This document shows positions 11,063 through 59,345 of a DNA stretch of 64,000 bases, piece after piece. The stretch is from Pristiophorus japonicus (Eukaryota). The notes under the pieces are model-generated. The model worked only from the letters and a program-made list of their open reading frames with translations, was not told the origin of the DNA and made no database searches. The first letter of the stretch is position 1. Each line of letters starts with the position of its first letter. The position numbers and the translations under genes were made by a program. The stretch spans positions 115,320,001 to 115,384,000 of the forward strand of contig NC_091994.1 of NCBI RefSeq assembly GCF_044704955.1, written 5' to 3'.

Positions 11063-14000
11063 ACATAGAAACATAGAAAATAGGTGCAGGAGTAGGCCAT
11101 TCGGCCCTTCTAGCCTGCACCGCCATTCAATGAGTTCATGGCTGAACATGCAACTTCAGTACCCCATTCCTGCTTTCTCGCCATACCCCTTGATCCCCCT
11201 AGTAGTAAGGACTTCATCTAAATCCTTTTTGAATATATTTAGTGAATTGGCCTCAAGAACTTTCTGTGGTAGAGAATTCCACAGGTTCACCACTCTCTGG
11301 GTGAAGAAGTTTCTCCTCATCTCGGTCCTAAATGGCTTACCCCTTATCCTTAGACTGTGACCCCTGGTTCTGGACTTCCCCAACATTGGGAACATTCTTC
11401 CTGCATCTAACCTGTCTGAACCCATCAGAATTTTAAACGTTTCTATGAGGTCCCCTCTCATTCTTCTGAACTCCAGTGAATACAAGCCCAGTTGATCCAG
11501 TCTTTCTTGATAGGTCAGTCCCGCCATCCCGGGAATCAGTCTGGTGAACCTTCGCTGCACTCCCTCAATAGCAAGAATGTCCTTCCTCAAGTTAGGAGAC
11601 CAAAACTGTACACAATACTCCAGGTGTGGCCTCACCAAGGCCCTGTACAACTGCAGCAACACCTCCCTGCCCCTGCACTCAAATCCCCTCGCTATAAAGG
11701 CCAACATGCCATTTGCTTTCTTAACCACCTGCATGCCAACCTTCAATGACTGATGTACCATGACACCCAGGTCTTGTTGCATCTCCCCTTTTCCTAATCT
11801 GCCGCCATTCAGATAATATTCTGCCTTCGTGTTTTTGCCACCAAAGTGGATAACCTCACATGTATCCACATTATACTGCATCTGCCATGCATTTGCCTAC
11901 TCACCTAACCTATCCAAGTCACCCTGCAGCCTCATACCATCCTCCTCGCAGCTCACACTGCCACCCAACTTAGTGTCATCCGCAAATTTGGAGATACTAC
12001 ATTTAATCCCCTCGTCTAAATCATTAATGTACAATGTAAACAGCTGGGGCCCCAGCACAGAACCTTGCGGTACCCCACTAGTCACTGCCTGCCATTCTGA
12101 AAAGTACCCATTTACTCCTACTCTTTGCTTCCTGTCTGACAACCAGTTCTCAATCCATGTCAGCACACTACCCCCAATCCCATGTGCTTTAACTTTGCAC
12201 ATTAATCTCTTGTGTGGGACCTTGTCAAAAGCCTTCTGAAAGTCCAAATATACCACATCAACTGGTTCTCCCTTGTCCACTCTACTGGAAACATCCTCAA
12301 AAAATTCCAGAAGATTTGTCAAGCATGATTTCCCTTTCACAAATCCATGCTGACTTGGACCTATCATGTCAACTCTTTCCAAATGCGCTGCTATGACATC
12401 CTTAATAATTGATTCCATCATTTTACCCACTACTGAGGTCAGGCTGACCGGTCTATAATTCCCTGTTTTCTCTCTCCCTCCTTTTTTAAAAAGTTGGGTT
12501 ACATTGGCTACCCTCCACTCGACATGAACTGATCCAGAGTCAATGGAATGTTGGAAAATGACTGTCAATGCATCCGCTATTTCCTTCAGTACTCTGGGAT
12601 GCAGTCCATCAGGCCCTGGGGATTTATCGGCCTTCAATCCCATCAATTTCCCCAACACAATTTCTCGACTAATAAGGATTTCTCTCAGTTCCTCCTCCTT
12701 ACTAGACCTCTGACCCCTTTTATATCCGGAAGGTTGTTTGTGTCCTCCTTAGTGAATACCGAAGCAAAGTACTTGTTCAATTGGTCTGCCATTTCTTTGT
12801 TCCCCGTTATGACTTCCCCTGATTCTGACTGCAGGGGACCTACGTTTGTCTTTACTAACCTTTTTCTCTTTACATATCTATAGAAACTTTTGCAATCCGT
12901 CTTAATGTTCCCTGCAAACTTCTTCTCGTACTCCATTTTCCATGCCCTAATCAAACCCTTTGTCCTCCTCTGCTGAGTTCTAAATTTCTCCCAGTCCCTG
13001 GGTTCGCTGCTATTTCTTGTTACTTTGTATACCACTTCCTTGGCTTTAATACTATCCCTGATTTCCCTTGATAGCCACGGTTGAGCCACCTTCCCTTTTT
13101 TATTTTTACGCCAGACTGGAATGTGCAATTGTTGTAGTTCATCCATGCGGTCTCTAAATGTCTGCCATTGCCCATACACAGTCAACCCCTTAAGTATCAT
13201 TCGCCAATCTATCCTAGCCAATTCACGCCTCATTCCTTCAAAGTTACCCTTCTTTAAGTTCTGGACCATGGTCTCTTGAATTAACTGTTTCATTCTCCAT
13301 CCTAATGCAGAATTCCACCATATTATGGTCACTCTTCCCCAAGGGGCCTCGCACAACGAGATTGCTAATTAATCCTCTCTCATCACACAACACCCAGTCT
13401 AAGATGGCCTCCCTCCTAGTTGGTTCCTTGACATATTGGTCTAGAAAACCATCCCTTATGCACTCCAGGAAATCCTCCTCCACCGTATTGCTTCTAGTTT
13501 GGTTAGCCCAATCTATGTGCATATTAAAGTCATCCATTATAACTGCTGCACCTTTATTGCATGCACCCCTAATTTCCTGTTTGATGCCCTCCCCAACATC
13601 ACTACTACTGTTTGGAGATCTGTACACAACTCCCACTAACGTTTTTTGTCCTTTGGTGTTCTGTAGCTCTACCCATATAGATTCCACATCATTCAAGCTA
13701 ATGTCCTTCCTAACTATTGCATTAATCTCCTCTTTAACCAGCAATGCTACCCCACCTCCTTTTCCTTTTATTCTATCCTTCCTGAATGTTGAATACCCCT
13801 GGATGTTGAGTTCTCAGCCCTGATCATCCTGGAGCCACGTCTCTGTAATCCCAATCACATCAAAATTGTTAACATCTATTTGCACAGTTAATTCATCCAC
13901 CTTATTACGGATACTCCTTGCATTAAGACACAAAGCCTTCAGGCTTGTTTTTTTAACACCCTTTGTCCTTTTAGAATTTTGCTGTACAGTGGCCCTTTTT

Positions 14001-14163
14001 GTTCTTTTTCTTGGGTTTCTCTGCCCTCCACTTTTCCTCATCTCCTTTCTGTCTTTTGATTTTGTCTCCTTTTTGTTTCCCTCTGTCTCCCTGCATTGGT
14101 TCCCATCCCCCTGCCATATTAGTTTAACTCCTCCCCAACAGCACTAGCAAACACTCCCCCTAG
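11063..14163 (-). mobile_element. Young CR1 LINE nested inside the + strand CR1
   Basis: ORF2 pieces 11156-14041; (CATAGAAA)2 tail at 11064. Confidence 0.95.
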
Positions 14164-15678
14164 GGATTGTGGAATGAGGGCTAAAGTAGACTGGGAACAC
14201 AGACTAAACGGTGGCACAATTGAGGAACAGTGGAGTACTTTTAAGGAGCTCTTTCATAGTGCTCAACAAAAATATATTCCAGTGAAAAAGAAGGGTGGTA
14301 AGAGAAGGGATAACCAGCCGTGGATAACCAAGGAATTAAAGGAGAGTATCAAATTAAAAACCAATGCGTATAAGGTGGCCAAGGTTAGTGGGAAATTAGA
14401 AGATTGGGAAAATTTTAAACGACAGCAAAAAATGAGTAAGAAAGCAATAAAGAAAGGAAAGATAGATTACGAAAGTAAATTTGCGCAAAACATAAAAACA
14501 GATAGTAAAAGCTTTTACCAATATATACAACGGAAAAGAGTGACTAAAGTAAATGTTGGTCCCTTAGAAGATGTGAAGGGGAATTTAATAATGGGAAATG
14601 TGGAAATGGCTGAGACCTTAAACAATTATTTTGCTTCAGTCTTCACAGTGGAAGACACAAAAACCATGCCAAAAATTACTGGTCACGGGAATGTGGGAAG
14701 GGAGGACCTTGAGACTATCACTAGGGGGGAAGTGCTGGACAAGCTAATGGGACTCAAGGTAGACAAGTCCCCTCGTCCTGATGAAATGCATCCCAGGGTA
14801 TTAAAAGAGATGGCAGAAGTTATAGCAGATGCATTTGTTATAATCTACCAAAATTCTCTGGACTCTGGGGAGGTACCAGCGGATTGGAAAGCAGCTAATG
14901 TAACGCCCCTGTTTTTAAAAAAAAAAAGGGGCAGACAAAAGGCAGGTAACTATAGACCACTTAGTTTAACATCTGTAGTGGAGAAAATGTTTGAAGCTAT
15001 CATTAAGGAAGAAATAGCGCGACATCTAGATAGGAATAGTGCAATCAAGCAGACGCAACATGGATTCATGAAGGGGAAATCATGTTTCACTAATTTACTG
15101 GAATTCTTTGAGGATTTAACGAGCATGGTGGATAGAGGTGTACCGATGGATGTGGTGTATTTAGATTTCCAAAAAGCATTCGATAAGGTGCCACACAAAA
15201 GGTTACTGCAGAAGATAAAGGTACGCGGAGTCAGAGGAAATGTATTAGCATGGATCGAGAATTGGCTGGCTAACAGAAAGCAGAGAGTCGGGATAAATAG
15301 GTCCTTTTCGGGTTGGAAATCGGTGGTTAGTGGTGTGCCACAGGGATCGGTGCTGGGACCACAACTGTTTACAATATACATAGATGATCTGGAAGAGGGG
15401 ACAGAGTGTAGTGTAACAAAATTTGCAGATGACACAAAGATTAGTAGGAAAGCGGGTTGTGCAGAGGACACAGAGAGGCTGCAAAGAGATTTCGATAGGT
15501 TAAGCGAATGGGCTAAGGTTTGGCAGATGGAATACAATGTCGGAAAGTGTGAAGTCATCCACCTTGGGGGGGGGGGGGGGGGGGAGGGAAGAGAAACAGT
15601 AATAGGGAATATTACTTGAATGGGGAGAAATTGCATCATGCTGTGATGCAGAGGGACCTGGGGGTCCTTGTGCATGAA
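14164..15678 (+). mobile_element. CR1 LINE (host copy), part 2: RT
   Basis: ORF 14174..15619, 481 aa, with all RT motifs. Confidence 0.95.
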
Positions 15679-17581
15679 ACTCTTTTTGGAGTTCACCTGC
15701 AAAACATAAAACATTAAACGGTGCCACCCGACCTGGGTGACACTCCAGACATTTACAAGACCCTTTTTCCCCCCCCCTTTTTTTTTTTTTTTTGTTTTTC
15801 TTTTTTTGGTTTTTTTTTGGGCACTAAAATCACAATTTTCCCCAGTGCCCCCTATAAAAGGGAAGGGGGACACTAAAAGCACCGGCAATTAAAACAAATT
15901 AAACTTAAAAACGTAAAATCAAATTAAAATTTGGTTGCCGGGCGTGATGATGCACTCCAGTCCCTCCGGTGCCCACCTCTCGCGGAAGGCCGCGAGCGTA
16001 CCGGTGGACACCGCGTGCTCCATCTCCAAGGACACCCTGGACCGGATGTAAGAGCGGAAGAGAGGCAGGCAGTCAGGTTGAACGACCCCCTCGACCGCCC
16101 GCTGCCTGGACCGGCTGATGGCACCCTTGGCCGTGCCCAGGAGCAGTCCTACGAGGAGGCCTTCGGACCTACCCGCTCCCCTCCGCACATGTGCCCAAAG
16201 ATCAGGAGAGTGGGACTGAAGTGCAGCCAGAATTTCAGGAGCAGCCCCTTCAAATAATGGAACAGGGGCTGCAACCTCGTGCACTCAATAAAAACATGGA
16301 ACACGGACTCCTCCAGACTGCAGAAATTGCAGGCGGCCTGGGAGTCCGTGAACCGGCTTAAAAATTTGTTGCACGGCACTGCTCCGTGCACCACCCTCCA
16401 GGCCAAGTCCCCGATGAATAGTGGGAGGACCCCTGCGTAGAGTGCCCTCCATCGGGGACCCCCGCCTCCTCCGGACGGCAAGATGGTACGCCATGGAGTG
16501 TCCGGACGGCCGGCGAGGATGGCAAAGTTGAGGGTGTGCAGGAGCAGCCCGTACAGGAAACCCCTCCGCGCGGAACTGAAAGGCACGGAGGGGATTTCCC
16601 CGAGGCGGCTCAAGTTGTGAGGCACCGGCCCCCGAGGGAGGTTCCGGGGTTTGGCGCCGATGAGGAATTCCGTCCGGACGGGGGTCAGTTCGGACGGGAT
16701 CTCCCCACGTGCTTGAGCCTCCTCGATGCACCTAACGGAGTCAGGGCCCAGAGCTGTTTTTAGCGACTCGATGGCATCGGCCGCGTGGCGGACGTTGGCA
16801 GAGTTTAGGCGCTGCGCCAGCGTGTCTGGCGCCATCCAGCCCGCTCCTCCGCCATCGAGCAGGTCCCTGACCCTGGTCACCTCACCAGCCACAGCCCTCT
16901 CTTCCGACCGCCACATAAAACCTCGGCCGTGGAGGTACGGATTCCCGAGCAGCGGTTCCTGCAGGACGGCCGCCGCTCCAGCCGGCGGAGAGCTGCGCTT
17001 GGTGGATACTTTGTTCCAGACCCTGATGAGTTCCCTGTAAAAGACAGGCAGCTCCCGGAGGGCGGTCCTGGCACCCACCAAGTTCACAAACAGGAGCTGC
17101 GTGTCATAATTGAGGTCGCGCTGCTGGCGGAAGAAATACCTCGCCAGAGCACACCACCTAGGAGGGGGCTCGACGTAAAGGTATCTCTGCAGGGTCTGAA
17201 GACGGAAAGTCGCGAGCTGGGTGCTGACGCACACCAACGACTGACCGCCCTCCTCAAGCGGGAGACTCAAGACCGCGGCAGAGACCCAGTGCTTCCTGTT
17301 GTTCCAGAAGAAGTCCACCAGCTTCTTCTGTATCTTGGCGACAAACGCAGGGGGAGGGGTCAAAGTGACCAGCCGGTACCACAGCATTGCGGCCACCAGC
17401 TGGTTTATGACTAGCGCTCGACCCCTGTAGGACAGCACTCGGAGCAGTCCTGTCCAGCGCCCTAGGCGAGCGGCGACCTTGGCCTCCAGCTCCTGCCAGT
17501 TCGCCGGCCAGGCTCCCTCGTCGGGGCTAAGGTAGACTCCCAGATAGAGGAGATGGGTCGTGCTCCAGGCAAAAGGCCTGA
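15679..17581 (-). mobile_element. Tx1-clade (L1 superfamily) LINE copy A, 5'-truncated
   Basis: YLGVYL, LSYRGRALVINQL, GGQSL, C-terminal CNFC...HVFIEC zinc knuckle; flanked by tccttgtgcatgaa direct repeats. Confidence 0.9.
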
Positions 17582-17595
17582 TCCTTGTGCATGAA

Positions 17596-18744
17596 ACTCT
17601 TTTGAGTTTACCTGCGAAAACATAAAACATGTATCCGTGCCACCCGACCTGGATGACACACACAAGACATTTACAAGGCCCTTTTTTTGTGGTTTTTTTT
17701 TTTTTGGGCACTAAAATCAAATTTTTCCTTATTCCAGTGCCCCCTATAAAAGGAGAGGGGGACACTAAAAGCACCGGCAATTAAAACAAATTAAACTTTA
17801 AAACGTAAAATCAAATTAAAATTTGGTTGCCGGGCGTGATGATGCACTCCAGTCCCTCCGGTGCCCACCTCTCGCGGAAGGCCGCGAGCGTACCGGTGGA
17901 CACCGCGTGCTCCATCTCCAAGGACACCCTGGACCGGATGTAAGAGCGGAAGAGAGGCAGGCAGTCAGGTTGAACGACCCCCTCGACCGCCCGCTGCCTG
18001 GACCGGCTGATGGCACCCTTGGCCGTGCCCAGGAGCAGTCCTACGAGGAGGCCTTCGGACCTACCCGCTCCCCTCCGCACATGTGCCCAAAGATCAGGAG
18101 AGTGGGACTGAAGTGCAGCCAGAATTTCAGGAGCAGCCCCTTCAAATAATAAAACAGGGGCTGCAACCTTGTGCATTCCATAAAAACATGGAACACGGAC
18201 TCTTCCAGACCGCAGAAATTGCAGGCGGCCTGGGAGTCCGTGAACCGGCTTAAAAATTTGTTGCACGGCACTGCTCCGTGCACCACCCTCCAGGCCAAGT
18301 CCCCGATGAATAGTGGGAGGACCCCTGCGTAGAGGGCCCTCCATCGGGGACCCCCGCCTCCTCCGGACGGCAAGATGGTACGCCATGGCGTGTCCGGACG
18401 GCCGGCGAGGATGGCAAAGTTGAGGGTGTGCAGAAGCAGCCCGTACAGGAAACCCCTCCGCGCGGAACTGAAAGGCACGGAGGGGATTTCCCTGAGGCGG
18501 CTCAAGTTGTGAGGCGCCGGCCCCCGAGGGAGGTTCCGGGGTTTGGCGCCGATGAGGAATTCCGTCCGGACGGGGGTCAGTTCGGACGGGATCTCCCCAC
18601 GTGCCTGAGCCTCCTCGATGCACCTAACGGAGTCACGGCCCAGAGCTGTTTTTAGCGACTCGATGGCATCGGCCGCGTGGCGGACGTTGGCAGAATTTAG
18701 GCGCCGCGCCAGCGTGTCTGGCGCCATCCAGCCCGCTCCTCCGC
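17596..18744 (-). mobile_element. Tx1-clade LINE copy B, shorter 5' truncation, in tandem with copy A
   Basis: Nearly identical to the 3' part of copy A; same flanking 14-bp repeat. Confidence 0.9.
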
Positions 18745-19450
18745 TCCTTGTGCATGAATCCCAAAAAAAAAAGTTAGTTTGCAGGTGCAGCAGGTAATCA
18801 GGAAGGCGAATGGAATGTTGGCCTTCATTGCGAGAGGGATGGAGTACAAAAGCAGGGAGGTTCTGCTGCAACTGTACAGGGTATTGGTGAGGCCGCACCT
18901 GGAGTACTGCGTGCAGTTTTGGTCACCTTACTTAAGGAAGGATATACAACTTTGGAGGGGGTACAGAGACAATTCACTAGGTTGATTCTGGAGATGAGGG
19001 GGTTACCTTATGATGATAGATTGAGTAGACTGGGTCTTTACTCGTTGGAGTTCAGAAGGATGAGGGGTGATCTTATAGAAACATTTAAAATAATGAAGGT
19101 GATCGACAAGATAGAGGCAGAGAGGTTGTTTCCACTGGTTGGGGAGGCTAGAACTCGGGGGCACAGCCTCAAAATACGGGGGAGCCAATTTAAAACCGAG
19201 TTGAGAAGGAATTTCTTCTCCCAGAGGGTTGTGAATCTGTGGAATTCTCTGCCCAAGGAAGCAGTTGAGGCTAGCTCATTGAATGTATTCAAATCACAGA
19301 GAGAGAGATTTTTAACCATTAAGGGTTACGGGGAGCGGGCGGGTAAGTGGAGCTGAGTCCACGGCCAGATCAGCCATGATCTTGTTGAATGGCGGAGCAG
19401 GCTCGAGCGGCTAGATGGCCTACTCCTATTCCTAATTCTTATGTTCTTAT
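18745..19450 (+). mobile_element. CR1 LINE (host copy), part 3: ORF2 C-terminus and TTCTTATG tail
   Basis: Resumes VHES..QVQQVIRKANG, RPHLEYC; tail ttcttatgttcttatg. Confidence 0.93.
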
Positions 19451-19815
19451 GACACCCCAGTGCAGTACTGAGGGAGCACTGCACTATCGGAGGTGCCGTC
19501 TTTTGGATGAGATGTTAAACTGAGGCCCTGTCTGTGTTCTCAAGTGGACGTAAAAGATCCCATGGCAGTATTTCGAAGAGGAGCAGGGGAGGTATCCCTG
19601 GTGTCCTGGCCAATATTTATCCTTCAACCAAAGTAACAAAAAAACAGATTATCTGGCAATTATCACATTGCTGTTTATGGGAGCTTGCTGTGAGCAATTT
19701 AGCTGCTGCGTTTCCTACATTACAACAGTAACTACTCTCTAAGTACTTCCATCAGCTGTAAAGTGCTTTGAGATGTCCGGTGGTCGTGAAAGGCACGATA
19801 GAAATGCAAGTCTTT
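19451..19815 (+). mobile_element. Deu-domain SINE body and 3' tail
   Basis: gtcctggccaatatttatcc, ttgctgtttatgggagcttgctgtg, gtgaaaggcacgatagaaatgcaagtc; related copies at about 28750-28950(-), 36760-36990(+), 44360-44580(-), 50850-51090(+). Confidence 0.8.
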
Positions 19816-21450
19816 TGCAAACCATATATGTCTTATTCACCCATGAAACTTTTTTCCTCCACCTCCATAATATCGCCCATCTTTATCCTTGCATCACTTT
19901 ACTGCCACTGAAATCTTTATTGATGCTTTTGTTACCTTTAAGCTTAACTTCAACACCTGAACTGCACTTTATACAAATCTGCCTGCATGCTATTCTGCAC
20001 CACATTCCATTTGTCTGTCACTCCTATTGTTGATGATCTCCTTTGTTGCCCTGCTGTACCTCTGCAACCTCATCCAGCTGTGCTCTTCCATCCTGCAGCT
20101 CCCTCCATTCTACCCTCGGTGACCGAGCATTCCATCTGTCTCAGCCACACTACTGGATCACTCTCGTTAAACACTCTGTCTTGTTTCCCTGCCTTTAAAA
20201 GTCGTCTTTAAAATCTTTCTCTAGACCATGCTTTCGGTCGGCTCTCCTAATTTTTCTGTTACTGCTCAGCATCTGCTTCTCCCTGACGAAAGAATATTCA
20301 GATCTGTTCACTGATTTTCTAAAAATTATTTTAATACATTATACATATATAATACAGACTTGTGCATGCTCACCCTCACCTCCTCAGCTTGTTCAATATT
20401 TGAGACAATGCCCCTTAAAGGAGTAACAAATTAATTTTTCTTCTGAGCTCTACTGGTGGCATTGCTTTTTTTCTTCCCTTGGGCTGCATTGTGGCGCCAC
20501 AGGTTTTCATTCTGTACCTCGTTCAAGTGGCTGTTAATTTATGTGTGAGCCTTGACCCCGGCTACCAGCAGGCGACCCAGCCGTGGAGATTATCACAGCC
20601 AGGTCCAATCCTGTTCTCGCTGTACTTGTCTGCACATGTCTACTTCCAATGGAGGTGGCTCTAAAGCCAGCAGGAGTTGGAACCTTTGGCTGATTCTCCC
20701 TCTTAACCAGATTCTCCCTCCGCAGCCTAAATTGTAAGGACTTTACCATGGTTCTGGCTGAGGTTGGCGACTCAAAGCAGGAGATCAAAATTACAATTTC
20801 ATGGTCTGAATGGCTGAGAGTTGCGACTACTCTCTGAACTGCCTGGAGAGCACATGGAAATATGTTGAATGAGAACTTGCACTGATTCAGATTGGGCTTA
20901 GCCAATGCTGGCCAAAAATGCATGATTTTTCTCAGTTAATTCAGCAATATCCGATCCACACAACCCAATGTGTATTCTGGACTGTGTTGTACTGTGTGAC
21001 CTAGTCATTTTGTGTTAATACAAAGAATCGTATCGTATCTACTGAACTATTTTTTTTTGTGGAACTTCCAGATATTTGATTTCCCCCCCCCCCCCCGCCA
21101 ATCACTTGTATAGCAGATACTGCCCGGTGTTGTTAACCAATGATGGTCATTATTGTAAACCTGGCAATGTGAATGTTAATATAATATTGGCAACATTAAC
21201 AAGGAGCAAAGATTCACACTCTGCAATTTTACTGAATTTGCTCTTAAGAATGTGTAAGAATTTATAAAAGACTTTGTACCTATTTTATGATATCTCAACC
21301 TGTAAGTCCCCATCAATAAGTGTATGGCAAAAGAGAAAGTATTGGGAAACGTCTAATGCAAATAGGAAATAATTCTCGTTGAATTGTGAAAGCTGCTGGT
21401 GTTCTGTTGTAATGTTGATCAGTGTATCTTTCCTTTCTGTGTTCTTTCAG

Positions 21451-21599
21451 TTCCAACTGCTGCTGTCTCTGCAACAGAGACTTCTGTTTCAAATGGTGTC
21501 TATGTTCCTCAAGGGATTGCCAATGGGGATGTCAAGCCTGTTATATCAACAACACCACTGGCAGACTTCCTTATGCAGTTAGAAGATTATACACCAACT
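21451..21599 (+). CDS. TAF10: TAF10 coding exon 2
   Basis: polypyrimidine-CAG acceptor, GTAAGT donor; encodes SNGVYVPQGIANGDVKPVISTTPLADFLMQLEDYTPT. Confidence 0.97.
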
Positions 21600-22904
21600 G
21601 TAAGTTTTTGTATTTTAATAATTCAAGCTCATATTGGAAACAATGTAAGTGCACAGTTAGAACTGGCTTTCCACATTTTCCATTCGCTTATCAATTAGCC
21701 AAGTAAACAAATTGCGTATAAATTATAATTAGCTGCAGTATAACAAAGTTACTGGTATGGCATTTGAACAGACAACGATTTCAACAGTTCCAATTCCCTG
21801 TAGAGCTTTGTAGTGCTGGAGATTTGCTCAGACTGAAGTTGATTTTAGGTTGTAGGGAGTGGGAGGCCAAGAGAACTTGGAATTCCGATCAATATTGATT
21901 TTCTGCAGATGGGACACGATGTTTAGAAATCCTTCATTCGAACATTTTTGAATCGAATAGATGGACATTAACTTGACATTTTCTGAATGTATAACCAGGA
22001 GTCCCGTTCAAGAAACTGAAACCATGGCAAAGGTATTTGGTGTTGCCTCAATAACTGTGAATTACAAAATAATCCTCCACTTTTTGTTGTTCAGAAAATT
22101 TACATGTGCAATATGCATATTCTGATCTATCATTCAAACTCCTTTTAGAGTACAAAAGTGCATCCATGTGTACAGCAAGCTTAAAATTAATTTTACTTGA
22201 TTAAAGTTTTTTGAGAGCACTTCATTCCAGTATAATGAACTGAACACAGTAAACTGGTGAAGCGTACAGTATCTGCATTCATATCAATTACAGAATTGTT
22301 TTTTGAGAATTAACAATTGTCTCTTCTCAAACCAACAACGTGAGTTTTGGTAAAGCTGTTTACAGTCTTGAGGGTCTGAGGAATTTTAGGTTTAGTTTTA
22401 CTTTATTTTCTGTGACTGTGGCATATGCCAGCACAAAGAAACTTTACATCAAAATCAGCTATACTCTAAAAGCTGGGCTGTATCATTCCATGCGTCTTTC
22501 CTTCAATGTTTCTCTGACACACAGGAGCTCTAACTGAGATTATTTAGAAAATGAATTGTTCAAAATCTAAGTACTTGGAACTCGCATAATTACAAAAGCT
22601 CTTTGCAAAGCATACTGCCTGTTTAGAACCTGGCATGAACTGTATTTAATATTGTCATTTAAGGAAATGGTCCCACAAACATGTAAGAATATTTGATAAA
22701 TGAGCAGTTATAATGGCCGCATGGAATCTCAGTATTGATTGGCTCTCGAGTAGGCTGTACTGCATTGTGGGATTTTCACAAGACGAGGTGGTGATAAAAG
22801 TATTGTTTAAATGCCAATGTATTCTGCCTTAAAGTGGTATGATATGTATACATAATTTTAAATGTAGCATTGCATTCTTATCTCTTGTTATTTGAACATT
22901 TCAG

Positions 22905-22969
22905 ATACCAGATGCTGTGACAGGATATTATCTGAATCGAGCAGGGTTTGAGGCTTCTGATCCTCGAAT
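22905..22969 (+). CDS. TAF10: TAF10 coding exon 3
   Basis: [24 protein letters not shown]/GT boundaries; phase 0 to 2. Confidence 0.98.
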
Positions 22970-23622
22970 GTACGTTAATGTTTTGACTTGCATAACTACC
23001 CATTCTAGTATAGATCAGCCATGATCTCATTGAATGGTGGAGTCGGCTCGAGGGGCCGAATGACCTGCTCCAAATTCTTCTTGTGCAATAACGTCAATTC
23101 CCAGCTTCTCTTCCAAGGTTTCTGCTTTGAGAAATATTTAATTTTTAAAGCATTTTATAATATATATGCAAAATGTTCCAAATAGCATGTTTCATGTCAT
23201 GTTTATGATAAAATTCTGAAATTCTGTACTGTTGGTCCCTGCAGTGAATCAAGCCTGCATGTATTCGGGAGTCTTTCCTCCTCCTTTAGTAAGCCTCTTT
23301 GCGAATGGACATTCAGAGTAGGAGAGGTTTATAAATGGATGGCGGTTATAATTGCTCGAATTTGTAGATTGAATGACTTCTCTGAAGAATTTGATTCCCC
23401 AGCGGAGCCTCCAGGAATGTTTTTAAAAAAAAAAAAAAAAAAAAATTTCTACTCGACAGGAATGAAAGAATTCCACAGAGGATGCTGTCTGTGTAATTTA
23501 ATTTATAAAACCTTCAATAATCTTTGAAGAAATAACATTTGTGTACTGTGAAATAAAACTGGATGTATCGCACTTAATGACCATTAAATCTGACATTTGA
23601 CCTAATTGTGTTTTCTAAACAG

Positions 23623-23737
23623 AATTCGTTTGATATCTTTGGCTGCACAAAAGTTCATCTCGGATATTGCAAACGATGCCTTGCAGCACTGTAAAATGAA
23701 AGGAACAGCATCAGGAAGCTCCAGAAACAAGAGCAAG
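23623..23737 (+). CDS. TAF10: TAF10 coding exon 4 (histone fold)
   Basis: IRLISLAAQKFISDIANDALQHCKMKGTASGSSRNKSK; AG/GT boundaries. Confidence 0.98.
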
Positions 23738-24034
23738 GTTTGTTCACATTGAACAGAGCAATGGTGCTGTGCTTCGAGCAATGCAAAGCACCTGTATAAA
23801 AGTTTTACTCACCAAAACCATGTTGCAAGAACAGAAAGTTTACTCTGAAGTGCACTGTGTAAAGTTGTAAAACTGCAGCCTTTGTAATTTAATTTATAAA
23901 ATTATTCTTTCTCAACCATGAGATTTATAAAAAAAAAAAAATCCGATCTAAGCTTGTATTTGTCACTATTTACTGTGCTATTCATTTGTTAGAATATTTT
24001 TGGCCGCACAAACTCGTTTTCATATTTCATTGTT

Positions 24035-24330
24035 CTCTAATTCTGCCCTCTTGAGCATCCCTGATTATAATCGCTCAACCATCGGCAGCTGTGCCTTCTG
24101 TTGCCTGGGCCCCAAGCTCTGGAATTCCCTCCCTAAACCTCTCCGCCTCTCTACCTCTCCTCCTTTAAGACGTTCCTTAAAACCTACTTCTTTGACCAAT
24201 CTTTTGGTCCTCTGCCGTAATTTCTTCTTGTGTGGCTCCATGTCAATTTTTTTTCTGCTCGTATAACACTCCTGTGAAGTGCCTTGGGATATTTTACTAA
24301 GTTAAAGGCTCTATATAAATACAAGTTATT
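24035..24330 (+). mobile_element. L2-type LINE/SINE 3' tail
   Basis: GP.LWNSLP motif, ccttaaaacctac and gtgaagtgccttggga...ctatataaat tail. Confidence 0.6.
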
Positions 24331-25416
24331 GTTCATAGACCAACAGCCCAAGGGAACTCCAGACTTTTTAAAACAAAGTTTTCAGCGTGCATACTAAACA
24401 CAAATCAAACTAATTTTACAATGAAAAAGCTTTGCAAATGTCAGGAATTGTAGTATTATGTTGAAATTACAATTACTTGGGCCAGTCTCGTAGAAAATTA
24501 TGCAGAAATTGCAACATGGAAACTGATCATTTTCAGCCCAACCAATCCGTGGTGGTCTTGATCCGCCACTCAAGCAGTGTCCTAATCCCATGTGCTGCCC
24601 TGTTGCCCTATACCTTTATCCCCATTCCTACAACCACCTATCGAATCTATTCTTAAATGTTGACATGGTCTCTGCTTCAGTCACTAACTCAGTACATTCC
24701 ACATCCGTGCAACCCTCTGTGTTTATAAAAAAAAATGCTTTCTCTTGCTTTCTGTCCTAAATCTCTCGTGTATATCTCCATCATTCTAGATCCCTCAATC
24801 TGGAAACAGTCTATTTCTATCTACCCGGTCACTCACTTCAAAATTTTAAACACCTGTATCAAATCATCCCTTAATCTCTTCTCTTTTAATGAAATCAGCC
24901 CCAATTTTTCAAGCTATTCATATTTGTACTGCCTCATACCAGGCAGCATCCTAGTGGATCTACACTGCACTCTTTACGGTGTCTCAGCTCCGTCCTGTAA
25001 CATTCCATTAGCTTTTTATTAATTGCCTTGGGCACTTGAGGTGCTGTTTTGAGGATCTGCATCCCTGAATCCATCCACTCAACTTTCCCCCATTCCCAGC
25101 ATATTTACCAAAATATACCACTTCACAATTATATTACAGTGGCATTGGATTCCTTTAGCCACTATTTTTGCCCATTCCACCATCTTTTCAATATCCCCAT
25201 GAAATTTACTTTGGTCCCCAGAATGATTTACTGTGTCTCCTATTTTAGTATTGTCTGGTGTTAATGGAGCAGGTGGGGGAGAAATAATCTCAAAAAAAAT
25301 AAAGACGTTTAATTTGAAGGTAGTTCAAGTTGAATTCTGCGAACCATGTCTTATGAGCTGCTGCTATTCTCGTTTTCTAAATCATTGGTTAAATAGCTGT
25401 ATTTTGTCATTTTTAG

Positions 25417-25506
25417 GACAAGAAGTACACCCTCACCATGGAGGATTTAATTCCTGCTCTCACTGAATATGGTATCAATGTGAAGAAACCTCATTACTTT
25501 ACATAA
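25417..25506 (+). CDS. TAF10: TAF10 coding exon 5 (stop)
   Basis: DKKYTLTMEDLIPALTEYGINVKKPHYFT*; spliced CDS totals 486 nt = 161 aa + stop. Confidence 0.98.
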   Translation, partial: DKKYTLTMEDLIPALTEYGINVKKPHYFT

Positions 25507-43040: not shown

Positions 43041-43147
43041 CTTAGCTTGAGACCGAAATGGCTGAAGTCATCAAACCGTTGAAAACCAAAGATTTAAGAG
43101 GATTCGCAGGGAGAATATAATTACTGGAAGTGAACGTGGGATCTCGT
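43041..43147 (-). pseudogene. TCR-alpha/delta-type transmembrane exon, frameshifted
   Basis: tttcttttctatcacag acceptor; DEIPRSLPVIIFSLRIL[frameshift]KSLVFNGLMTSAISVSS*, then G|GTAAAG donor; Arg, Lys and FN..MT signature. Confidence 0.85.
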
Positions 43148-45048
43148 CTGTGATAGAAAAGAAATAAAATGCACTAGTGCAAAATTCAGAACATTAAAAC
43201 CATCATCGTGAAGAAAGACCTGGTTGGTGTAAAGCCGCGGAGTTAGGGAGGAGTTAGATGGCCGAATCTGGTGGGTTGCCAACTCTGACTGGACATATTC
43301 CTGGAGATTTCATAACATGAGCTCCCCCCTCCAACCGCCCCACCCGGCCAAACAGCCTTTCTTCGCCATCTCCAATACGTTTATAACTAATAAATAAACG
43401 TGTTCAAAGAAAATGAAAAACAAACACACCATTTTTTCTCGCGGGTATCTCGCAGAACTGACCAGGAGATGAATCTTTAATTGCCGGATACTCCAGGGCA
43501 ATTCTGGAGAGTTGGCAACCCCTAATATCTAGCGATAATCTGACAGTAGCTGGGTTTTATACAGTTACCCTACAGCCGTCGGTCAGTGAGACACCAAGAT
43601 TCCTGGTAATGTTAACAAAGAGCCCACAGGGGACCCGCTCACCAAGTGACAAACGTCACCAGTATCCTGAGGTGAACTCTGCATGTCCTTAAAGCACTCA
43701 CGCGCAAAGCTGCACTTAACTTGTTGGGACTGGCACTGTAACTCGGCTCACTCTCAGAGCACGGTTACACTCTCGCTGCCAGGGGAGCGGCTCAGCCAAC
43801 AGACCCGGGATATATTGCCAATTCCAAGTGTCCGTTTAGCCAGCGGAAACATGGACATGTCATGCACAGATCGACTCAATGTTCTTAAAATATCTGTTGA
43901 ATTTTAACATTAAAAGGTTTGTTGGGTTATCAGTTTTCTGCTAACATTAAATAAACAACTAAAAATAAAGTTTGAATCACACCACATAGTTTGTTTCAAT
44001 GTGAAGATGATAAAAATGTTCTGGACTAACCGACCTATTGAAAGGGGCGGGTCGGAAGTAAAAAAGAGCTATTCTGGTTATATTATGTAACGACAGCATT
44101 ACAGGCCATCGCTGGAGACAGTTCAGGATCAGCCCTGAAAAGACTCAGTGAAATGGCCCTGTTTGGTACCAAGCAGTGAATTAGCCTCCAGATGAAAATA
44201 TTGTAACTAACACTCAAAGCTTCTAACTCCGAGCTCTCTCAGGTTTTCTAAATTCACAACCGCCATTTCTACAGCTGCTCACCACCGCTAAAGGCGCCAT
44301 ATAGGATTAGGCAAATATTTTGGTAAATTTATCATAAAAAAGGAACACTAGTAATAAAAAAAAGACTTTCATTTATATAGCGCCTTTCAGGATCTCAGGA
44401 CGTCCCAAAGCGTTTCACAGCCAATGGAGTAGTTTGGAAGTGAAGTCACTGTTGTAATGTAGGAAAAGCGACAGACAATCTGAGGCAAATCCCACAGCAA
44501 TGTGATACCTACCAGTTTAGGTGTTGGTTGAGGGATTAATATTGGCCAGGACCCTGGGCGTACTCCCCTGCTCCCCGTCACACTTCCCGATTTGAACATA
44601 TATGGGCCCTTTATGGTCTCCGGGTTAAATGCCTGGAACTCCCTCTCTAACAGCACTGTGGGAGCACCTTCACCACACGGACTGCAGCGGTTCAAGAAGG
44701 CGACTCACCACCACCTTCTCAAGGGGCAATTAGGGATGGGCAATAAATGCCGGCCTCGCCAGCGACGCCCACATCCCCAGATGATTAATAATAAGAGACA
44801 GTATGTGTGTGTGAGATTTAGAGGCGTTTCATTTCCAATAACCAAGTTACGCGCAACAACTCGAGAAGGGAAGAACATTCGAGTTCTGGTCGATGCCACA
44901 ATTTCTCCAATTTTTTGTGTAATCCTTTGTGTTTATCACCTAGTTACCAAACGCGGTATTCGAGATTCGACTCTTTATAAACTGCGTAGAGGTGAAGCTG
45001 AAAGATTTGAAAAAGATCTCGTTGTTTAAAATATGAAGCTGGACAAAC

Positions 45049-45093
45049 CTTCATCGGAGTCGACCAGGAGACATTCCTCTCGCAGCTTCTGGG
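45049..45093 (-). pseudogene. Connecting-peptide exon with interchain Cys
   Basis: ttcttacag acceptor; 45 nt, phase 1-1; AQKLREECLLVDSDE; GTTTGT donor. Confidence 0.8.
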
Positions 45094-45756: not shown

Positions 45757-46079
45757 CTCTGTCTTTTGACATGTCTGATGATACAGTTCTCACAGAGCGA
45801 GGCGGATCCGCTTGGCCGGTGTATGAGTTTCCAGCGTCTCAGCTTTGAACCGTGGCCGATGTTTGACTGTCTAGACTGTAATAGCCATCTCGGCCCACCG
45901 CCGCACCGAACTGCAGGCGACTCCCGCCGATAGGCGACTGGCCGGAAACATTCCAGGTGACTGTCAGCGAGTCCGGGTAAAACGATGTCAATAAACCGCT
46001 GAGGCTCGCACTCGGCCCTCCCTCAACACCGGCAGCAGGGGGCGGCAGGATAAACACAGAGGGGCACTGCTCGCGTGAC
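45757..46079 (-). pseudogene. Ig-superfamily C1 constant-domain exon (disabled)
   Basis: PSVFILPP...ASLSGLLTSFYPDSLTVTW...DGYYSLDSQ...S*DAGNSYTGQA; ttgcag acceptor, G|GTTGGT donor; TGA at 45839-45841; 323 nt, one short of a phase 1-1 exon. Confidence 0.9.
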
Positions 46080-50074: not shown

Positions 50075-50345
50075 ACACACAGCCCAACACTGACATCAAC
50101 ACACAGCCCAACACTGGCAGCAACACACAGCCCAACACTGACATCAACACACAGCCCAACACTGGCAGCAACACACAGTCCAACACTGGCATCAACACAC
50201 AACCCAACCCTGACATCAACACACAGTCCAACACTGACATCAACACACAGTCCAACACTGACATCAACACACAGTCCAACACTGATATCAACACACAGTC
50301 CAACACTGGCATCAACACACAGTCCAACACTGGCATCAACACACA
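50075..50345. repeat. 24-bp minisatellite, about 11 copies
   Basis: acacacagtccaacactgacatca variants. Confidence 0.95.
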
Positions 50346-52663
50346 GATTTTCCAGCAATGCCCGCTCGATATTTTATTAAAGAGGCGGATAGAAGTTGGT
50401 TATTTTATTGTGTAAGATGGTTTGAGACCATGTTCCTGTTTGTGATATCCTTATTTGAAATTGGATTTGTGTGAATAGGCTGTTTATTCAAACAATCCGT
50501 TTCCACAGCCGGATGATTGGTTTAGGGAATTTATTCAGAGTGACTGGAATATTTGCATGACGCTTTTTGAAGCGATGACTAATTTGGCACAAGTTTTAGA
50601 CAGATCCTAATTCCAAACAACATTGGCACAGAGAAACCCCAGCCCGGACCACTCCCTCTCACCCGCAGGATTCACACATAGAATGGTTTGAACATCATGA
50701 TTTTATCGCACTTAACCAATGTCCATGAAACAGCAGTCGGGGTCACTCTGGGATTAGTCTGGTTTGCCAGCTCTGCTCCGGGTCCGTGTAGCTGGACCTT
50801 GGCACAACAACCCGCCCAGTCCCAGAACCGTAACTGTAATTGGATGAGAGGCCCCATCTGCCCTCTCAGGTGGACACAAAAGATCTTGCTGTTCTGGTCA
50901 ATATTTATCCCTTGATCAATATCACCAAAACAGATGATCTGGTCATTATCCTATTGCTATTTGTGGGATCTTGCTGTGTGCACATTGGCTATCGGCTTTC
51001 TCTACATTACAACGGCGACTACACTTCAAAAGTACATCATTGGCTCTTAAACGCTTTGGGGTCTCCTGAGGTTGTGAAGGGCGCTATAGAAATGCAGAGT
51101 TCTCAGCTCCCTCCTAACCCTGGTCTCAGTCTGGAGTGGTGACCCTAAGTGGAGGAAGTACATCCGGGAGGGCACTGAGCACCTCGAGTCTCAATGCCGA
51201 GAGCATGCAGAAATCAAGCGCAGGCAGCGGAAAGAGAGTGCGGCAAACCAGACTCCCTGCCCACCCTTTCCCTCAACGACTCTCTGTCCCACCTGTGACA
51301 GGGACTGTGGCTTTCGGATTGGACTGGTCAGCCACCTAAGGACTCATTCTAGGAGTGGAAGCAAGTCTTCCTCGATTCCGAGGGACTGCCTATGATGATG
51401 ATGATGATTTAAACAGCCATTGGATTCAATGCCCTGAGGCAGGAAGCAGAGTTCTGAACATGCGCAGTTAAACCTCTGTGCAGGCTGGCTTTACCCAAAC
51501 TCTGGCGAAATGTTCATCTCTTCTCAATCGCTAATTAGCATGATTGCATCCGCATGCAAAAGTAAGTTAACAAAAGAGCCTCCTTTTTAAAAGTGGGACA
51601 AACAATAAATACCAAATTTAAATAAAAACAAAGGAAACTTGTCAAATTAAATCCCAATATTGTTGCAGGCGTCGACAAGCTGCCTGCAGTGCGCGGACCC
51701 CGGGCGCTCTCTCTCCAGGAGGCGAAATGTCTGAAGTTCGGAAAGACCTGACTCTGCTGGGAATCCCTTTCCAGGTTTAGAAACTGGTGCTGCTGGGCCC
51801 GGGGCCGCTTTGCTCTGGAGAAAAGGAGCGTCAGATGAGGGAGTCCAGACAGACCGGTATAAAACGAGAAAGTGCTGGAAATCCTCAGCGGGTCAGGCAG
51901 CACCTGTGGAGAGAGAGACAGAGCTAATGTTTCAGGCCCATGGCCCTTCAGATGTTGCTGTGGGCGAACAGCAGAGAAGGGGTATGTTTGGGAGCCGAGC
52001 GGCCTGTGCTCCAGGCGGAGGGAGCACAGTGAGATAATACCGTCTCACCTGGCGGTGTGAAGCTAAGGGAGGAACTTGCGGGGCTCCGCAAGGTTGCTGA
52101 GAACAAAACTCACCTGTCCTCCACAGATTCGGACTGACCTGTTGAGTGCTTGCAGCAGTTTCTGTTTTTGTTCCTTGGAACTAGGTTTATGACTTTCTGG
52201 AAGTTCTCGTTGGATTTTTGATGTCTGATCACTATTCACTGAATCACATTCACCAATATGGAAAACCTGTCTCATAGATTTGATGGAGGTGTTTAAAACC
52301 ATGACAGGGTTTTGATGGAGTAAATAAGGAGAAGCGGTTTCCAATGGCAGGGGGGTTGGTAACAGAGGAGCGGGAGTTGAGAATTTTTTTTACACAGCGA
52401 GTTTTGTGATCTGGAAAGCGCTGCCTAACAGGGTGGTGAAAATAGATACAATAATAACCTTAAACATGAAATTGGTAAAAACTTGAAGCCGAATTTCGGT
52501 GCGATGGGGAAAGAGCAGGGGCGTTGGATACATTGGATAGATCTGTTAAAGAGCATAGCACCAAGGTCCCAATGACCTCCTCCTGTGCTGTGTCATTCTA
52601 TTATTCTATGAATCTATGACATGACGATAAAATGCCTGCAAATAGGCCGACTACGCCCGGTTG

Positions 52664-52701
52664 GGATTTTGTGTGCAATCTCGTCTGTTTGCACCGCTGT
52701 G
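52664..52701 (-). other. Recombination signal sequence (23-class, 22-bp spacer)
   Basis: CACAGCG + 22 nt + ACAAAATCC directly after the V coding end. Confidence 0.9.
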
Positions 52702-53003
52702 GGAAACTAGCAGCGCAGAAATACACGGCGCTGTCGCCCAGGCGGAGCGAGGTTAAAATCAGGCTGCAGTTCCGAACCCTGGTCCAGAAACATTGAACCT
52801 TGCGGGAATTTCCAAAGTGCTCTGCCTCTGTGCTCCATATGTTTGTTGGGAATAGACGATGAAATGGAAGCTTTCCCCCGGAACCTGCCTGTACCAGTAC
52901 ATGTAATCCCAGGAAGCGCTCTGTCCGCAGTTTAGTTCCACAGCCTGTCCCACAAACACTGTGGCAGCAGGAGATTGTGTGACAATATTCTCAGGAGCGG
53001 TGC
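52702..53003 (-). pseudogene. TCR V-beta-like V exon with one frameshift
   Basis: ENIVTQSP...VELNCGQSASWDYMYWYRQVPG...RFNVSGPG[-1]RNCSLILTSLRLGDSAVYFCAASF; tattcag acceptor. Confidence 0.92.
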
Positions 53004-53167: not shown

Positions 53168-53216
53168 TTGCCCAGGACAGAACGATGAGGGAAATGAGTA
53201 GAGTCGGCAGCATCAT
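53168..53216 (-). pseudogene. Leader exon of the V gene
   Basis: MMLPTLLISLIVLSWA, 49 nt, GTGAGT donor; phase 1 matches the V exon. Confidence 0.88.
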
Positions 53217-55770: not shown

Positions 55771-56454
55771 ACTCAAGGCCTGACCTTCACAAGTCCAGTA
55801 CTCTATTGATGTGGGCATCAACCCTCCCCGCCACCCCCCCAAAAAAAATATACCGTAGCTCTCAGTTGGAGAATTTCCACATTGTGAGGAGCATGTGTTG
55901 ATGCATTTAAGGGGAAGCTCGATAAGCACATGAGGGAGCAAGGAATCGGATATGCTGATAGAATGAGATGAAGAGGAATGTGGAGCATAACCAGACCAGC
56001 TGGGCCAAGTGTACAGTTTCTGTGCTGTGAATCCTTTAGTCATCCTGTGCCAGGAACTGTTTATGTGGTGCTGGTACTGGGAATCCTGCAGAATTCACAC
56101 TCTGCCAGCGCATCCTGAGTAATTTCCTGGGAACAACCATTAATTAAGGATGCGTTTATTTGTACAAACTGAAAGGCTGCCGTTTCTCTGATTGGCTCTC
56201 CATTATCACATTATCTATTGCTGATTGGTCCTCTTGGAGGATAAGCCACACCCTGAAGCTTCTCTGGAATGTGCAACTGGAATCGCCCAGCCCAAGTTCT
56301 GATTGACTTTCCAATTTGTAATTCGATCCATTTTGACTTTAGAAGCCACAGAGGATAGATCTCCCCAAAAGCCACCAAGTTCCAGCCAAAGTCCCTTACC
56401 CCAGCGCAAGTGCATCCCCCCCCAGCCAAAGTCCCTTGTCCCAGTGCAAGATGC

Positions 56455-59345
56455 TTTTGTGACTGGAAGGATGTTTCCAGTGGTATACATTAATGATCTA
56501 GATTTGAATATAGGGGATATGATTAAGAAGTTTGTAGATGACACTAAAATTGGTTGTGTGGTTAATAATGAAGAGGAAAGTCATGTACTGCAGGAGGATA
56601 TCACTCTACTGGTCAGGTGGGCAGAACAGTGGCAAATAGAATTTAATTCGGAGAAGTGTAAAGTAATGCACTTGGGGAGGGCTAATAAGGAAAGGGTATA
56701 CACATTAAATGGCAGGCCATTTAGCAGTGTAGATGAACAAAGAAACCTTCGAGTGCTTGTCCACATATCCATGAAAGTAGCACGCCAGGTGGCTAACATA
56801 GAAACATAGAAAATAGGTGCAGGAGTAGGCCATTCGGCCTTTCTAGCCTGCACCGCCATTCAATGAGATCATGGCTGAACATGCAACTTCAGTACCCCAT
56901 TCCTGCTTTCTCACCATACCCCTTGATTCCCCTAGTAGTAAGGACTTCATCTAACTCCTTTTTGAATATATTCAGTGAACTGGCCTCAACAACTTTCTGT
57001 GGTAGAGAATTCCACAGGTTCACCACTCTCTGGGTGAAGAAATTCCTCCTCATCTCGGTCCTAAATGGCTTACCCCATATCCTTAGACTGTGTCCCCTGG
57101 CTCTGGACTTCCCCAACATTGGGAACATTCTTCCTGCATCTAACCTGTCTAACCCCATCAGAATTTTAAACGTTTCTATGAGGTCCCCTCTCATTCTTCT
57201 GAACTCCAGTGAATACAAGCCCAGTTGATCCAGTCTTTCTTGATAGGTCAGTCCCGCCATCCCGGGAATCAGTCTGGTGAACCTTCGCTGCACTCCCTCA
57301 ATAGCAAGAATGTCCTTCCTCAGGTTAGGAGACCAAAACTGTACACAATACTCCAGGTGTGGCCTCACCAAGGCCCTGTACAACTGTAGCAACACCTCCC
57401 TGCCCCTGTACTCAAATCCCCTCGCTATGAAGGCCAACATGCCATTTGCTTTCTTAACCGCCTGCTGTACCTGCATGCCAACCTTCAATGACTGATGTAC
57501 CATGACACCCAGGTCTCTTTGCACCTCCCCTTTTCCTAATCTGTCACCATTCAGATAATAGTCTGTCTCTCTGTTTTTACCACCAAAGTGGATAACCTCA
57601 CATTTATCCACATTATACTTCATCTGCCATGCATTTGCCCACTCACCTAACCTATCCAAGTCACTCTGCAGCCTCATAGCATCCTCCTCGCAGCTCACAC
57701 TGCCACCCAACTTAGTGTCATCTGCAAATTTGGAGATACTACATTTAATCCCCTCGTCTAAATCATTAATGTACAGTGTAAACAGCTGGGGCCCCAGCAC
57801 AGAACCTTGTGGTACCCCACTAGTCACTGCCTGCCATTCTGAAAAGTACCCATTTACTCCTACTCTTTGCTTCCTGTCTGACAACCAGTTCTCAATCCAT
57901 GTCAGCACACTACCCCCAATCCCATGTGCCTTAACTTTGCACATTAATCTCTTGTGTGGGACCTTGTCGAAAGCCTTCTGAAAGTCCAAATATACCACAT
58001 CAACTGGTTCTCCCTTGTCCACTCTACTGGAAACATCCTCAAAAAATTCCAGAAGATTTGTCAAGCATGATTTCCCTTTCACAAATCCATGCTGACTTGG
58101 ACCTATCATGCCACCTCTTTCCAAATGTGCTGCTATGACATCCTTAATAATTGATTCCATCATTTTACCCACTACCGATGTCAGGCTGACCGGTCTATAA
58201 TTCCCTATTTTCTCTCTCCCTCCTTTTTTTAAAAAGTGGGGTTACATTGGCTACCCTCCACTCCATAGGAACTGATCCAGAGTCAATGGAATGTTGGAAA
58301 ATGACTGTCAATGCATCCACTATTTCCAAGGCCACTTCCTTAAGTACTCTGGGATGCAGGCGGTTAAGAAGGCATATGGAATGCTTTGGCCAAGGCACAG
58401 AATATAAGAGCAGGGAGGTTATGCTTAAATTTTATAATACTCTGGTAAGGCTACAGCTGGAATACTGTGTGCAATTCTGGTTGCCGTATTATAGGAAGGA
58501 TGTGATTGCACTAGAGAGGGTGCAGAAGAGATTTACTAGAATGCTGCCTGGAATGGAGAATCTTAGTTATGAGGACAGATTGGATAGGCTGGATTTGTTC
58601 TCATTGGAACAGAGGAGGCTGAGAGGAGACCACATTGAGGTGTATAACATTTTGAGAGGCCTGGACATAGTGGATACCAAGGGCCTATTTCCCTTGGTAG
58701 AGGGGTCAATTACAAGGGGGCATAGTTTTAAGGTGGTTGGTGGAAGGTTCAGAGGGGATTTGAGGGGAAACTTCTTTATGCAGAAGGTTGTGGGGATCTG
58801 GAACTCACTGCTTGGAAGGGTGGTGGATGCAGAAACCCTCACCACATTTAAAAGGTGTTTGGATGGGCACTTAAAGTGCCATAACCTGCAGGGTTAGGGA
58901 CCAAGAGCTGGTAATTGGGATTAGACTGGATAACCTCTTGTTGGCTAGCGCAGATACGATGGTAAGTACAGCAGAGAATCGAATACAGCCAGAGTGATCT
59001 CCTGGACTAGTTTCGATCTCCTGGATGGATTGAAGAGGAATTTCCCAGATTTTTTCCCCAATTGGCCTGGGCTTTTATCTGTTTTTTGCCTCTCCCAGGA
59101 GATCACATGTCTCCGGTTGGGGTGGAGTGCAGAATGTTTCAGTGTAAGGGGTGTCGCAGTTGTGTGGTGCAGACTGGTTGGGCTGGGTGCTATTTACCTG
59201 TCCACCATTGTTCATTGTTCATAGGTTTATATGTAACCTTCAGTTCTGCTGACCGAGGGCCGTGCGGCTCTTTGTCGACCGGCACGGACACGATGGATCG
59301 ACATGGACTCCTTCTGCGCTGTAAATTTCTATGTTTCTATGTTTT
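56455..59345 (+). mobile_element. CR1 (long 3'UTR subfamily) split by a nested CR1
   Basis: YINDLD..KFVDDTK at 56480-56795; resumes at 58358 with RLQLEYC; TTTCTATG tail at about 59340. Confidence 0.9.
56796..58358 (-). mobile_element. Young CR1 with an uninterrupted 427-aa RT/C-terminal ORF
   Basis: ORF 56889..58172; CATAGAAA tail. Confidence 0.95.

Follow-up and report, generated by a model that had tools for sequence, protein, structure and literature searches.

The minus strand of the window, i.e. the whole 64,000-nucleotide stretch of Pristiophorus japonicus DNA that was analysed, carries a broken gene with the parts of a T-cell receptor (TCR) chain. Two exons singled out in an earlier note, which encode a connecting peptide (CP) and a membrane anchor (TM), are the 3' end of a pseudogene that consists of a leader, a V segment with a 23-type RSS, J remnants, a constant (C) exon, CP and TM (Table 1). 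A TATAAA motif is found ~40 nt upstream of the leader exon. The V segment is followed by an RSS, as in TCR chains; a strict scan detected no other RSS in the 38-56 kb part of the window. Among 31 V RSSs identified in the antigen-receptor loci examined, 4 have this heptamer.

Table 1. Parts of the TCR-like pseudogene, in positions of the window.
Feature	Position	Strand	Description
Leader exon	53168..53216	-	49 nt, phase 1, from ATG to GT donor; aligns by position with the leader of XP_078413805.1
V exon, TCR-beta-V-like	52702..53003	-	Pfam V-set; two-frame match to XP_078413805.1; trees
23-type RSS	52664..52701	-	Heptamer CACAGCG, 22-nt spacer, nonamer 8/9 of consensus
Candidate decayed J remnant 1	50799..50847	-	Top match of the DNA profile of P. 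japonicus TRAJ
Candidate decayed J remnant 2	50584..50633	-	Best match to the J of XP_078413805.1 in the V-C interval
C1-set constant exon	45757..46079	-	323 nt; Pfam C1-set; 58% identity to XP_078413805.1
CP exon	45049..45093	-	45 nt; interchain-type Cys kept
TM exon, alpha/delta type	43041..43147	-	Arg, Lys, Asn; 4-nt deletion just after 43098; stop codon and G ahead of GT

The earlier note had described a 45-nt exon with a cysteine and a 107-nt TM exon with the geometry of TCR-alpha, and both exons were recovered as described. The CP exon is bounded by AG and GT, has phase 1 and carries its cysteine at 45073-45071. In the TM exon, arginine (CGA) is the 14th full codon (43106-43104), and the 3' end consists of a stop codon and a G ahead of the GT donor. 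Alignment with the TRAC and TRDC exons of P. japonicus revealed a similar geometry, and all three genes share this 3' end. TRAC has a CP exon of 48 nt and a TM exon of 108 nt, with arginine likewise at the 14th codon, and TRDC has a CP exon of 51 nt and a TM exon of 111 nt (counted by hand), with arginine at the 15th. Identity of the TM peptide was 19/35 to TRA of P. japonicus, 19/35 to TRA of a ray and 15/35 to TRD, versus 10/36 to TRG and 8/36 and 4/36 to TRB, which agrees with the proposed alpha/delta-type anchor; a mis-anchored teleost TRA row was left out of this comparison. All five PDB matches of the TM peptide were TCR delta or alpha, at weak scores (E 0.29-1.4). A genome search with the TRAC TM exon retrieved TRAC and TRDC only and missed the frameshifted window copy. 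No untranslated exon was identified downstream of the TM exon, where a LINE starts ~190 nt past the donor.

The spacing of arginine and lysine in the TM exon had led to the prediction of a 4-nt deletion, which holds on two grounds. DNA alignment to the TM exon of P. japonicus TRAC places a 4-nt gap directly after 43098, and the orthologue XP_078413805.1 (see below) reads R-ILFF-K, which implies an intact TM exon of 111 nt. The search for orthologous exons with an intact R-x4-K thus gave a positive result: arginine and lysine are five residues apart in XP_078413805.1, and the window copy carries the deletion. Moreover, XP_078413805.1 has both CP and TM directly after its C domain, with the Arg/Lys pair kept, in agreement with the proposed joining of these segments to the C exon. 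The rest of the gene indicates that it is not TCR-alpha or TCR-delta itself, and the window copy is a pseudogene. The disulfide link to a partner chain and the assembly with CD3 that had been proposed would follow from the conserved cysteine of CP and the Arg/Lys pair of TM.

The gene is dead in P. japonicus. Its V exon contains a 1-nt frameshift near 52778-52780, and its C exon a frameshift near 46062, replacements of cysteine by glycine at 45997 and 45817, and a change of tryptophan to TGA at 45841-45839. In total, the window copy has three frameshifts (V, C and TM) and one stop, and has lost both C-domain cysteines. We rejected an assembly artefact as the cause of these breaks, because there are several independent lesions of different kinds. 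DNA and protein searches of the genome indicate that the gene is single-copy. Profile searches found no further V or C exon in the 100 kb downstream and 170 kb upstream, which leaves a single C exon over 334 kb.

A full HMMER search with the C exon yielded 119 proteins, of which XP_078413805.1 of the basking shark, Cetorhinus maximus, was 58% identical and the others 23-46%. This protein is the orthologue; its V domain is 70% identical to that of the window copy. A single open frame of 292 aa runs through its leader, V, J, C, CP and TM. Hence, all general parts of a TCR chain (leader, V-set, J, one C1-set, CP with Cys, basic TM and short tail) are present in XP_078413805.1, and they are broken in the window copy. 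Both C cysteines, the tryptophan and R-x4-K, all lost in the window copy, are kept. The CP exon is identical at 10 of 15 residues and matches at 38.4 bits, a score that none of the 540,026 flank positions reached. The TM exon is identical at 28 of 34 residues, with X at the break and the window match spread over two frames. The database name of the protein is 'immunoglobulin lambda-1 light chain-like', but an Ig light chain was ruled out, since CP and TM exons come after C whereas IgL ends after C without a membrane anchor. XP_078413805.1 is a one-member cluster and an automated model, seen on one contig (109 Mb). Word-based protein searches (window C against longer proteins; XP_078413805.1 against shorter and near-length proteins) revealed no further orthologue, and among the six matches of the near-length search only XP_078413805.1 itself was close. 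Rearranging genes often lack protein models. The assembly of the basking shark comprises ~4.0 Gb (PMC13044535, in the part available), versus 5.9 Gb for P. japonicus.

A strict scan for J segments and RSSs detected neither an intact J nor a D in the V-C interval, nor a 3' RSS. This interval was searched with two J models, namely a DNA profile of 35 TRAJ of P. japonicus and a codon model of the J of XP_078413805.1. Two J-like stretches ~215 nt apart ranked first and second in both models. Remnant 1 scored 0.4 bits with the DNA profile, versus 32-58 bits for real Js, and 6 of 200 shuffles reached that value; it scored 11.1 bits with the XP_078413805.1 model. Its 5' side adjoins a stretch that we take, by eye, to be a SINE. 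Remnant 2 scored 14.2 bits with the XP_078413805.1 model, a value attained at 1 of 540,020 flank positions and with an expectation of 0.012 in the interval. It has a heptamer-like CTCTGTG at 50633-50627, a mutated donor and no recognisable nonamer. This site lies 9 nt before the phenylalanine, versus 16-32 nt in all 42 TRAJ and TRBJ found in P. japonicus. Both candidates are decayed, and of their 12-RSS only this heptamer-like site was detected, with no nonamer. Just downstream of the remnants, the J-C intron contains a 24-bp tandem repeat of 11.3 copies (50075-50346).

In XP_078413805.1, the J resembles TRAJ, the CDR3 is of normal length and the V-J junction reads T-V twice. Such a repeat is expected where the heptamers of V and J are read through in frame, and suggests that XP_078413805.1 may be an automated splice across unrearranged V and J segments. 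The heptamer-like site of remnant 2 is in the same register as this junction.

The window gene lies on contig C18 (117 Mb), ~1.6 Mb from its end, and all four canonical TCR loci lie elsewhere. C23 carries TRAC, TRDC and many TRAJ. For TRB, a pair of C genes was found on C1166 together with J and V segments, and TM exons that match them were found on C11. TRG (V, J, C and TM) is on C1, where its neighbour is a MENTAL-family gene, likely STARD3NL. TRB is present twice in the assembly (C1166:375-475 kb and C11:26.08-26.46 Mb), as a second locus or a haplotig. The two C genes on C1166 are divergent and in opposite orientation, the TM exons are 84% and 50% identical across the contigs, and two unusual long-branch V genes (L110 and L112) lie inside the TRB region of C11. 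C1 domains of neither IgH nor IgL type occur at C4:117.28-117.30 Mb, C19:9.9 Mb and C23:6.85 Mb; those on C4 and C19 group together at 98-99 support and may be UrIg-type genes. On C18 itself, a separate cluster of V genes is located 68 Mb away, at 47.48-47.65 Mb (L115 and L116); from a motif, we take these to be Ig sigma-like light-chain V genes.

Neighbours of the window gene were identified in a scan of 122 predicted exons, and more neighbours may exist. TAF10 exons are located at 21390-25500 (+) of the window, where all three PF03540 matches of the genome fall. Cyclophilin exons (L100:7212-7543) and a cold-shock-protein exon (L105:3656-3820, minus strand) were found 30-90 kb downstream of the window; by their motifs, we assume that they are PPIH-like and YBX1-like, respectively. 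Human PPIH and YBX1 are adjacent on 1p34. CNPY3, POLR1B and RPL7L1 were not found among the scanned neighbours. Positions 1-20000 and 56300-59000 of the window are densely filled with LINE fragments, part of them nested, in which long reverse-transcriptase frames occur. Within ~70 kb upstream of V lie two trypsin-type serine protease genes (G000:C18:115386004-115440529; L040, L044 and L045), which are divergently arranged, both have Asp at S1 and have trypsins as their best PDB matches. Trypsin clusters mark the TRB loci of tetrapods (PMC12529555, in the part available). In P. japonicus, no trypsin exon was found in the partial TRB, TRG and TRA/D stretches, nor near C11:26 Mb among the 150 of 375 candidates scored. 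We consider the trypsin neighbours a hint only, because the TRB-trypsin link did not show up in the TRB stretches examined in this shark.

Different parts of the gene resemble different receptor classes. The first V tree, with 58 rows, was distorted by two long-branch rows and was rebuilt with 29 of the 58 rows, and then with 21 of them plus seven TRGV. The V segment was nearer to TRBV in all three trees, and grouped with two TRBV families at 94/85 (29 rows) and 91/89 (21 rows plus TRGV), which is below the 95/80 mark. AU tests did not reject its joining to TRA/D V (p = 0.086 and 0.195). Its best matches in the genome of P. japonicus lie in the TRBV array. The C domain fell outside the TRA/TRD C group at 87/94 in a tree of 23 rows and was otherwise unplaced; an AU test on the earlier 27-row tree, before five rows were dropped and TRGC was added, did not reject its joining to TRA/TRD (p = 0.44). 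Identity of C was 19-35% to every class, with the highest values for IgH and UrIg-like domains, and it scored 45-61 bits against Ig and UrIg-like C domains, versus 29.6 for TRAC and 16.5 for TRDC. It was 28% identical to TRAC and ~19% to TRDC of P. japonicus, but TRAC of P. japonicus and of a ray are themselves only 36% identical; TCR-alpha C domains evolve fast, so that low C identity alone is little proof.

The C domain keeps the canonical C-strand Trp and the helix-Trp motif, which are absent from TRAC and TRDC of P. japonicus. DUF1968 (PF09291) gave no match in XP_078413805.1, with the TRAC of P. japonicus just above the cut-off. The PTCRA family PF15028 matched neither XP_078413805.1 nor the window locus (none of the four weak genome matches exceeded the cut-off). 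An alignment-based model predicted a full C1 sandwich with pLDDT near 90, although biased towards canonical C1 by an alignment rich in Ig chains; the single-sequence fold had a pLDDT of 30. Fab light chains made up most of the Foldseek matches of the alignment-based model, next to some TCR chains, and none of the matches was discriminating. Feature searches ranked TCR-beta clusters first, which we treat as a lead only, and PTCRA clusters at 0.91-0.93. The chain would accordingly be a mosaic of a beta-like V, a canonical C1 and an alpha-type TM.

Comparison with known systems suggests that the window gene is none of TRA, TRD, TRB, TRG, TRE, PTCRA, IgL and UrIg on the features tested. With TCR-alpha it shares the C/CP/TM exon layout, the arginine at the 14th codon, R-x4-K followed by N, the 3' end of the TM exon, a 23-type V RSS, a TRAJ-like J and a V-C interval in which no D was found. 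Unlike TCR-alpha, it has one V instead of an array, this V is beta-like, and its C is a canonical C1 with 28% identity to TRAC; the site (C18 instead of the TRA/D locus on C23), the retained Trp and the absence of a PF09291 match argue against TRA. TCR-delta and its offshoots TCR-mu and NAR-TCR also have an Arg+Lys anchor, in TRDC of P. japonicus on a TM exon of the 111 nt implied for the intact gene, and they show that an extra chain can occupy the alpha/delta seat. In contrast to them, the window gene has no D and no VH-type or NAR-type V, encodes a single V domain and lies outside the antigen-receptor complex on C23. The missing 3' RSS between V and C and the 19% identity of C argue against TRD.

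TRB, TRG and TRE were ruled out by the TM arginine, as their anchors are Lys-only, and by identities of 4-10/36 in TM. Nevertheless, TCR-epsilon of squamates resembles the window gene as a small extra locus (~16 kb, 2 V) with a TRBV-related V and a 23-RSS, away from its parent locus; according to the available part of PMC11754216, its C is of beta type, its TM has Lys only, and it includes a D. The window gene differs in its Arg+Lys anchor, in its flanking genes and in a C that is not grouped with beta. PTCRA shares a canonical Ig C followed by CP and TM, a TCR-beta partner and low diversity, but has no counterpart to the V, RSS and J remnants; it was excluded by the lack of a PF15028 match, the presence of V and the absence of CNPY3 or POLR1B synteny among the scanned neighbours. 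UrIg and UrIg2 are likewise shark antigen-receptor-like genes with Ig-like C1 domains that were automatically annotated as light chains, and are described in the available part of PMC12227049 with an unsplit VJ, 3-11 C domains and a secreted form or an IgM-like TM. UrIg (unsplit VJ, three or more C1) was dismissed because the window gene, with a single C exon and a TCR-type TM, has its V split off and followed by an RSS.

We interpret these findings as a single-copy, broken shark gene for a fifth TCR chain, apart from alpha, beta, gamma and delta, which is intact in the basking-shark model (probability roughly 60%). Four elements of this picture are observed, namely how the gene is laid out, its lesions, its location apart from the known loci, and an orthologue model that is intact. 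The gene is a pseudogene in P. japonicus and likely functional in other species. Support comes from a single orthologue, an automated model, in which rearrangement would be read from the letters of the protein. Where a species has the gene intact, RAG in its thymocytes would use the 23-type RSS to link the single V directly to a J, of which there would be one or two. With so few segments, the product would be a nearly invariant chain with diversity mainly in CDR3, and might serve as the semi-invariant receptor of a small T-cell subset. The cysteine of CP would bond to a Lys-only partner chain, and arginine and lysine of TM would recruit CD3 as in TCR-alpha. Known receptors combine one Arg+Lys chain (alpha, delta, mu) with one Lys-only chain (PMC11754216, in the part available); with its Arg+Lys and CP cysteine, the intact chain would thus occupy the alpha/delta position, with beta or gamma as its partner. 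We lean slightly towards TCR-beta as the partner, since the TM resembles alpha more than delta and the J is alpha-like; TCR-gamma is the less probable candidate.

The gene could also be an orphon, a copy of TCR-alpha or -delta that was displaced and then diverged. Mammalian TCR-mu and other relocated TRA/TRD loci offer parallels, and in newts TRA and TRD have been relocated (PMC12698447, in the part available). The similar exon geometry, the 19/35 identity of TM to TRA, the TRAJ-like J of XP_078413805.1 and the AU tests all suit such an origin, and TCR-alpha chains are among the best named database matches of XP_078413805.1. We nevertheless consider it unlikely, given a C domain that keeps both tryptophan features missing from TRAC and TRDC and scores higher against Ig and UrIg-like domains, and a V nearer to TRBV in every tree. 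Still less probable is a surrogate alpha chain, i.e. a nearly invariant, pre-TCR-alpha-like chain that tests TCR-beta in early thymocytes of sharks without PTCRA. One V and few J would give little diversity, an alpha-type TM on a Cys/Trp/Cys C domain is also found in PTCRA (PMC9614664), the available text of PMC9614664 and PMC12529555 reports PTCRA from amniotes only, and PTCRA clusters appeared in the feature search. However, PF15028 did not match, PTCRA has no V or RSS, and the loss of the gene in P. japonicus speaks against an essential checkpoint. The neighbours, too, are TAF10, the presumed PPIH and YBX1, and trypsin-like genes, instead of the CNPY3, POLR1B and RPL7L1 that flank PTCRA (PMC9614664, in the part available).

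XP_078413805.1 itself, with V and J in one protein and a junction of normal CDR3 length, might be taken for a germline-joined VJ-C1 receptor that does not rearrange, in the manner of UrIg/PRARP, with the split form in P. japonicus as a side branch. Such antigen-receptor genes are known in sharks (PMC12227049, in the part available), but the V of the window ends in a good RSS, and the repeated T-V and the heptamer-like site of J remnant 2 would fit a splice across unrearranged segments; we regard this reading as improbable. Least credible is that the gene was never a working receptor class, but a shuffled relic, inert in all sharks, with a frame that is open in the basking shark by chance or because the gene died recently. 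The heavy decay of the window copy and the lack of an orthologue beyond the single model point in this direction, yet no hallmark residue is missing from the 292 aa of XP_078413805.1, although it has diverged from the window copy by 30-40%, which is hard to explain without selection.

TCR chains listed in the available parts of PMC12698447 and PMC12529555 are alpha, beta, gamma and delta, together with NAR-TCR, TCR-mu and TCR-epsilon. We found no published description of a chain like the present one in the literature searched, which included the supplements of PMC12227049; most subscription journals, with much of the work on shark TCRs, were outside this search. The fifth chain proposed here can be tested directly, starting from its one accession, its small locus and its named neighbours, and loss of the gene in P. 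japonicus would provide a natural knockout for comparison. A bolder view, which we put forward as tentative and rather doubtful, is that the fifth rearranging chain is ancient and that sharks kept it with its beta-like V, unreduced C1 and alpha-type anchor. The trypsin-flanked region around the gene may then be a paralogue of the TCR-beta locus. The chain would represent a surviving intermediate that predates the present alpha/delta and beta/gamma forms, and would define an unrecognised semi-invariant T-cell lineage that was lost in some sharks. An extra chain in the oldest TCR-bearing group, with a beta-like V, an alpha/delta anchor and an unreduced C, would bear on the origin of the four chains, and on how sharks select TCR-beta without pre-TCR-alpha.
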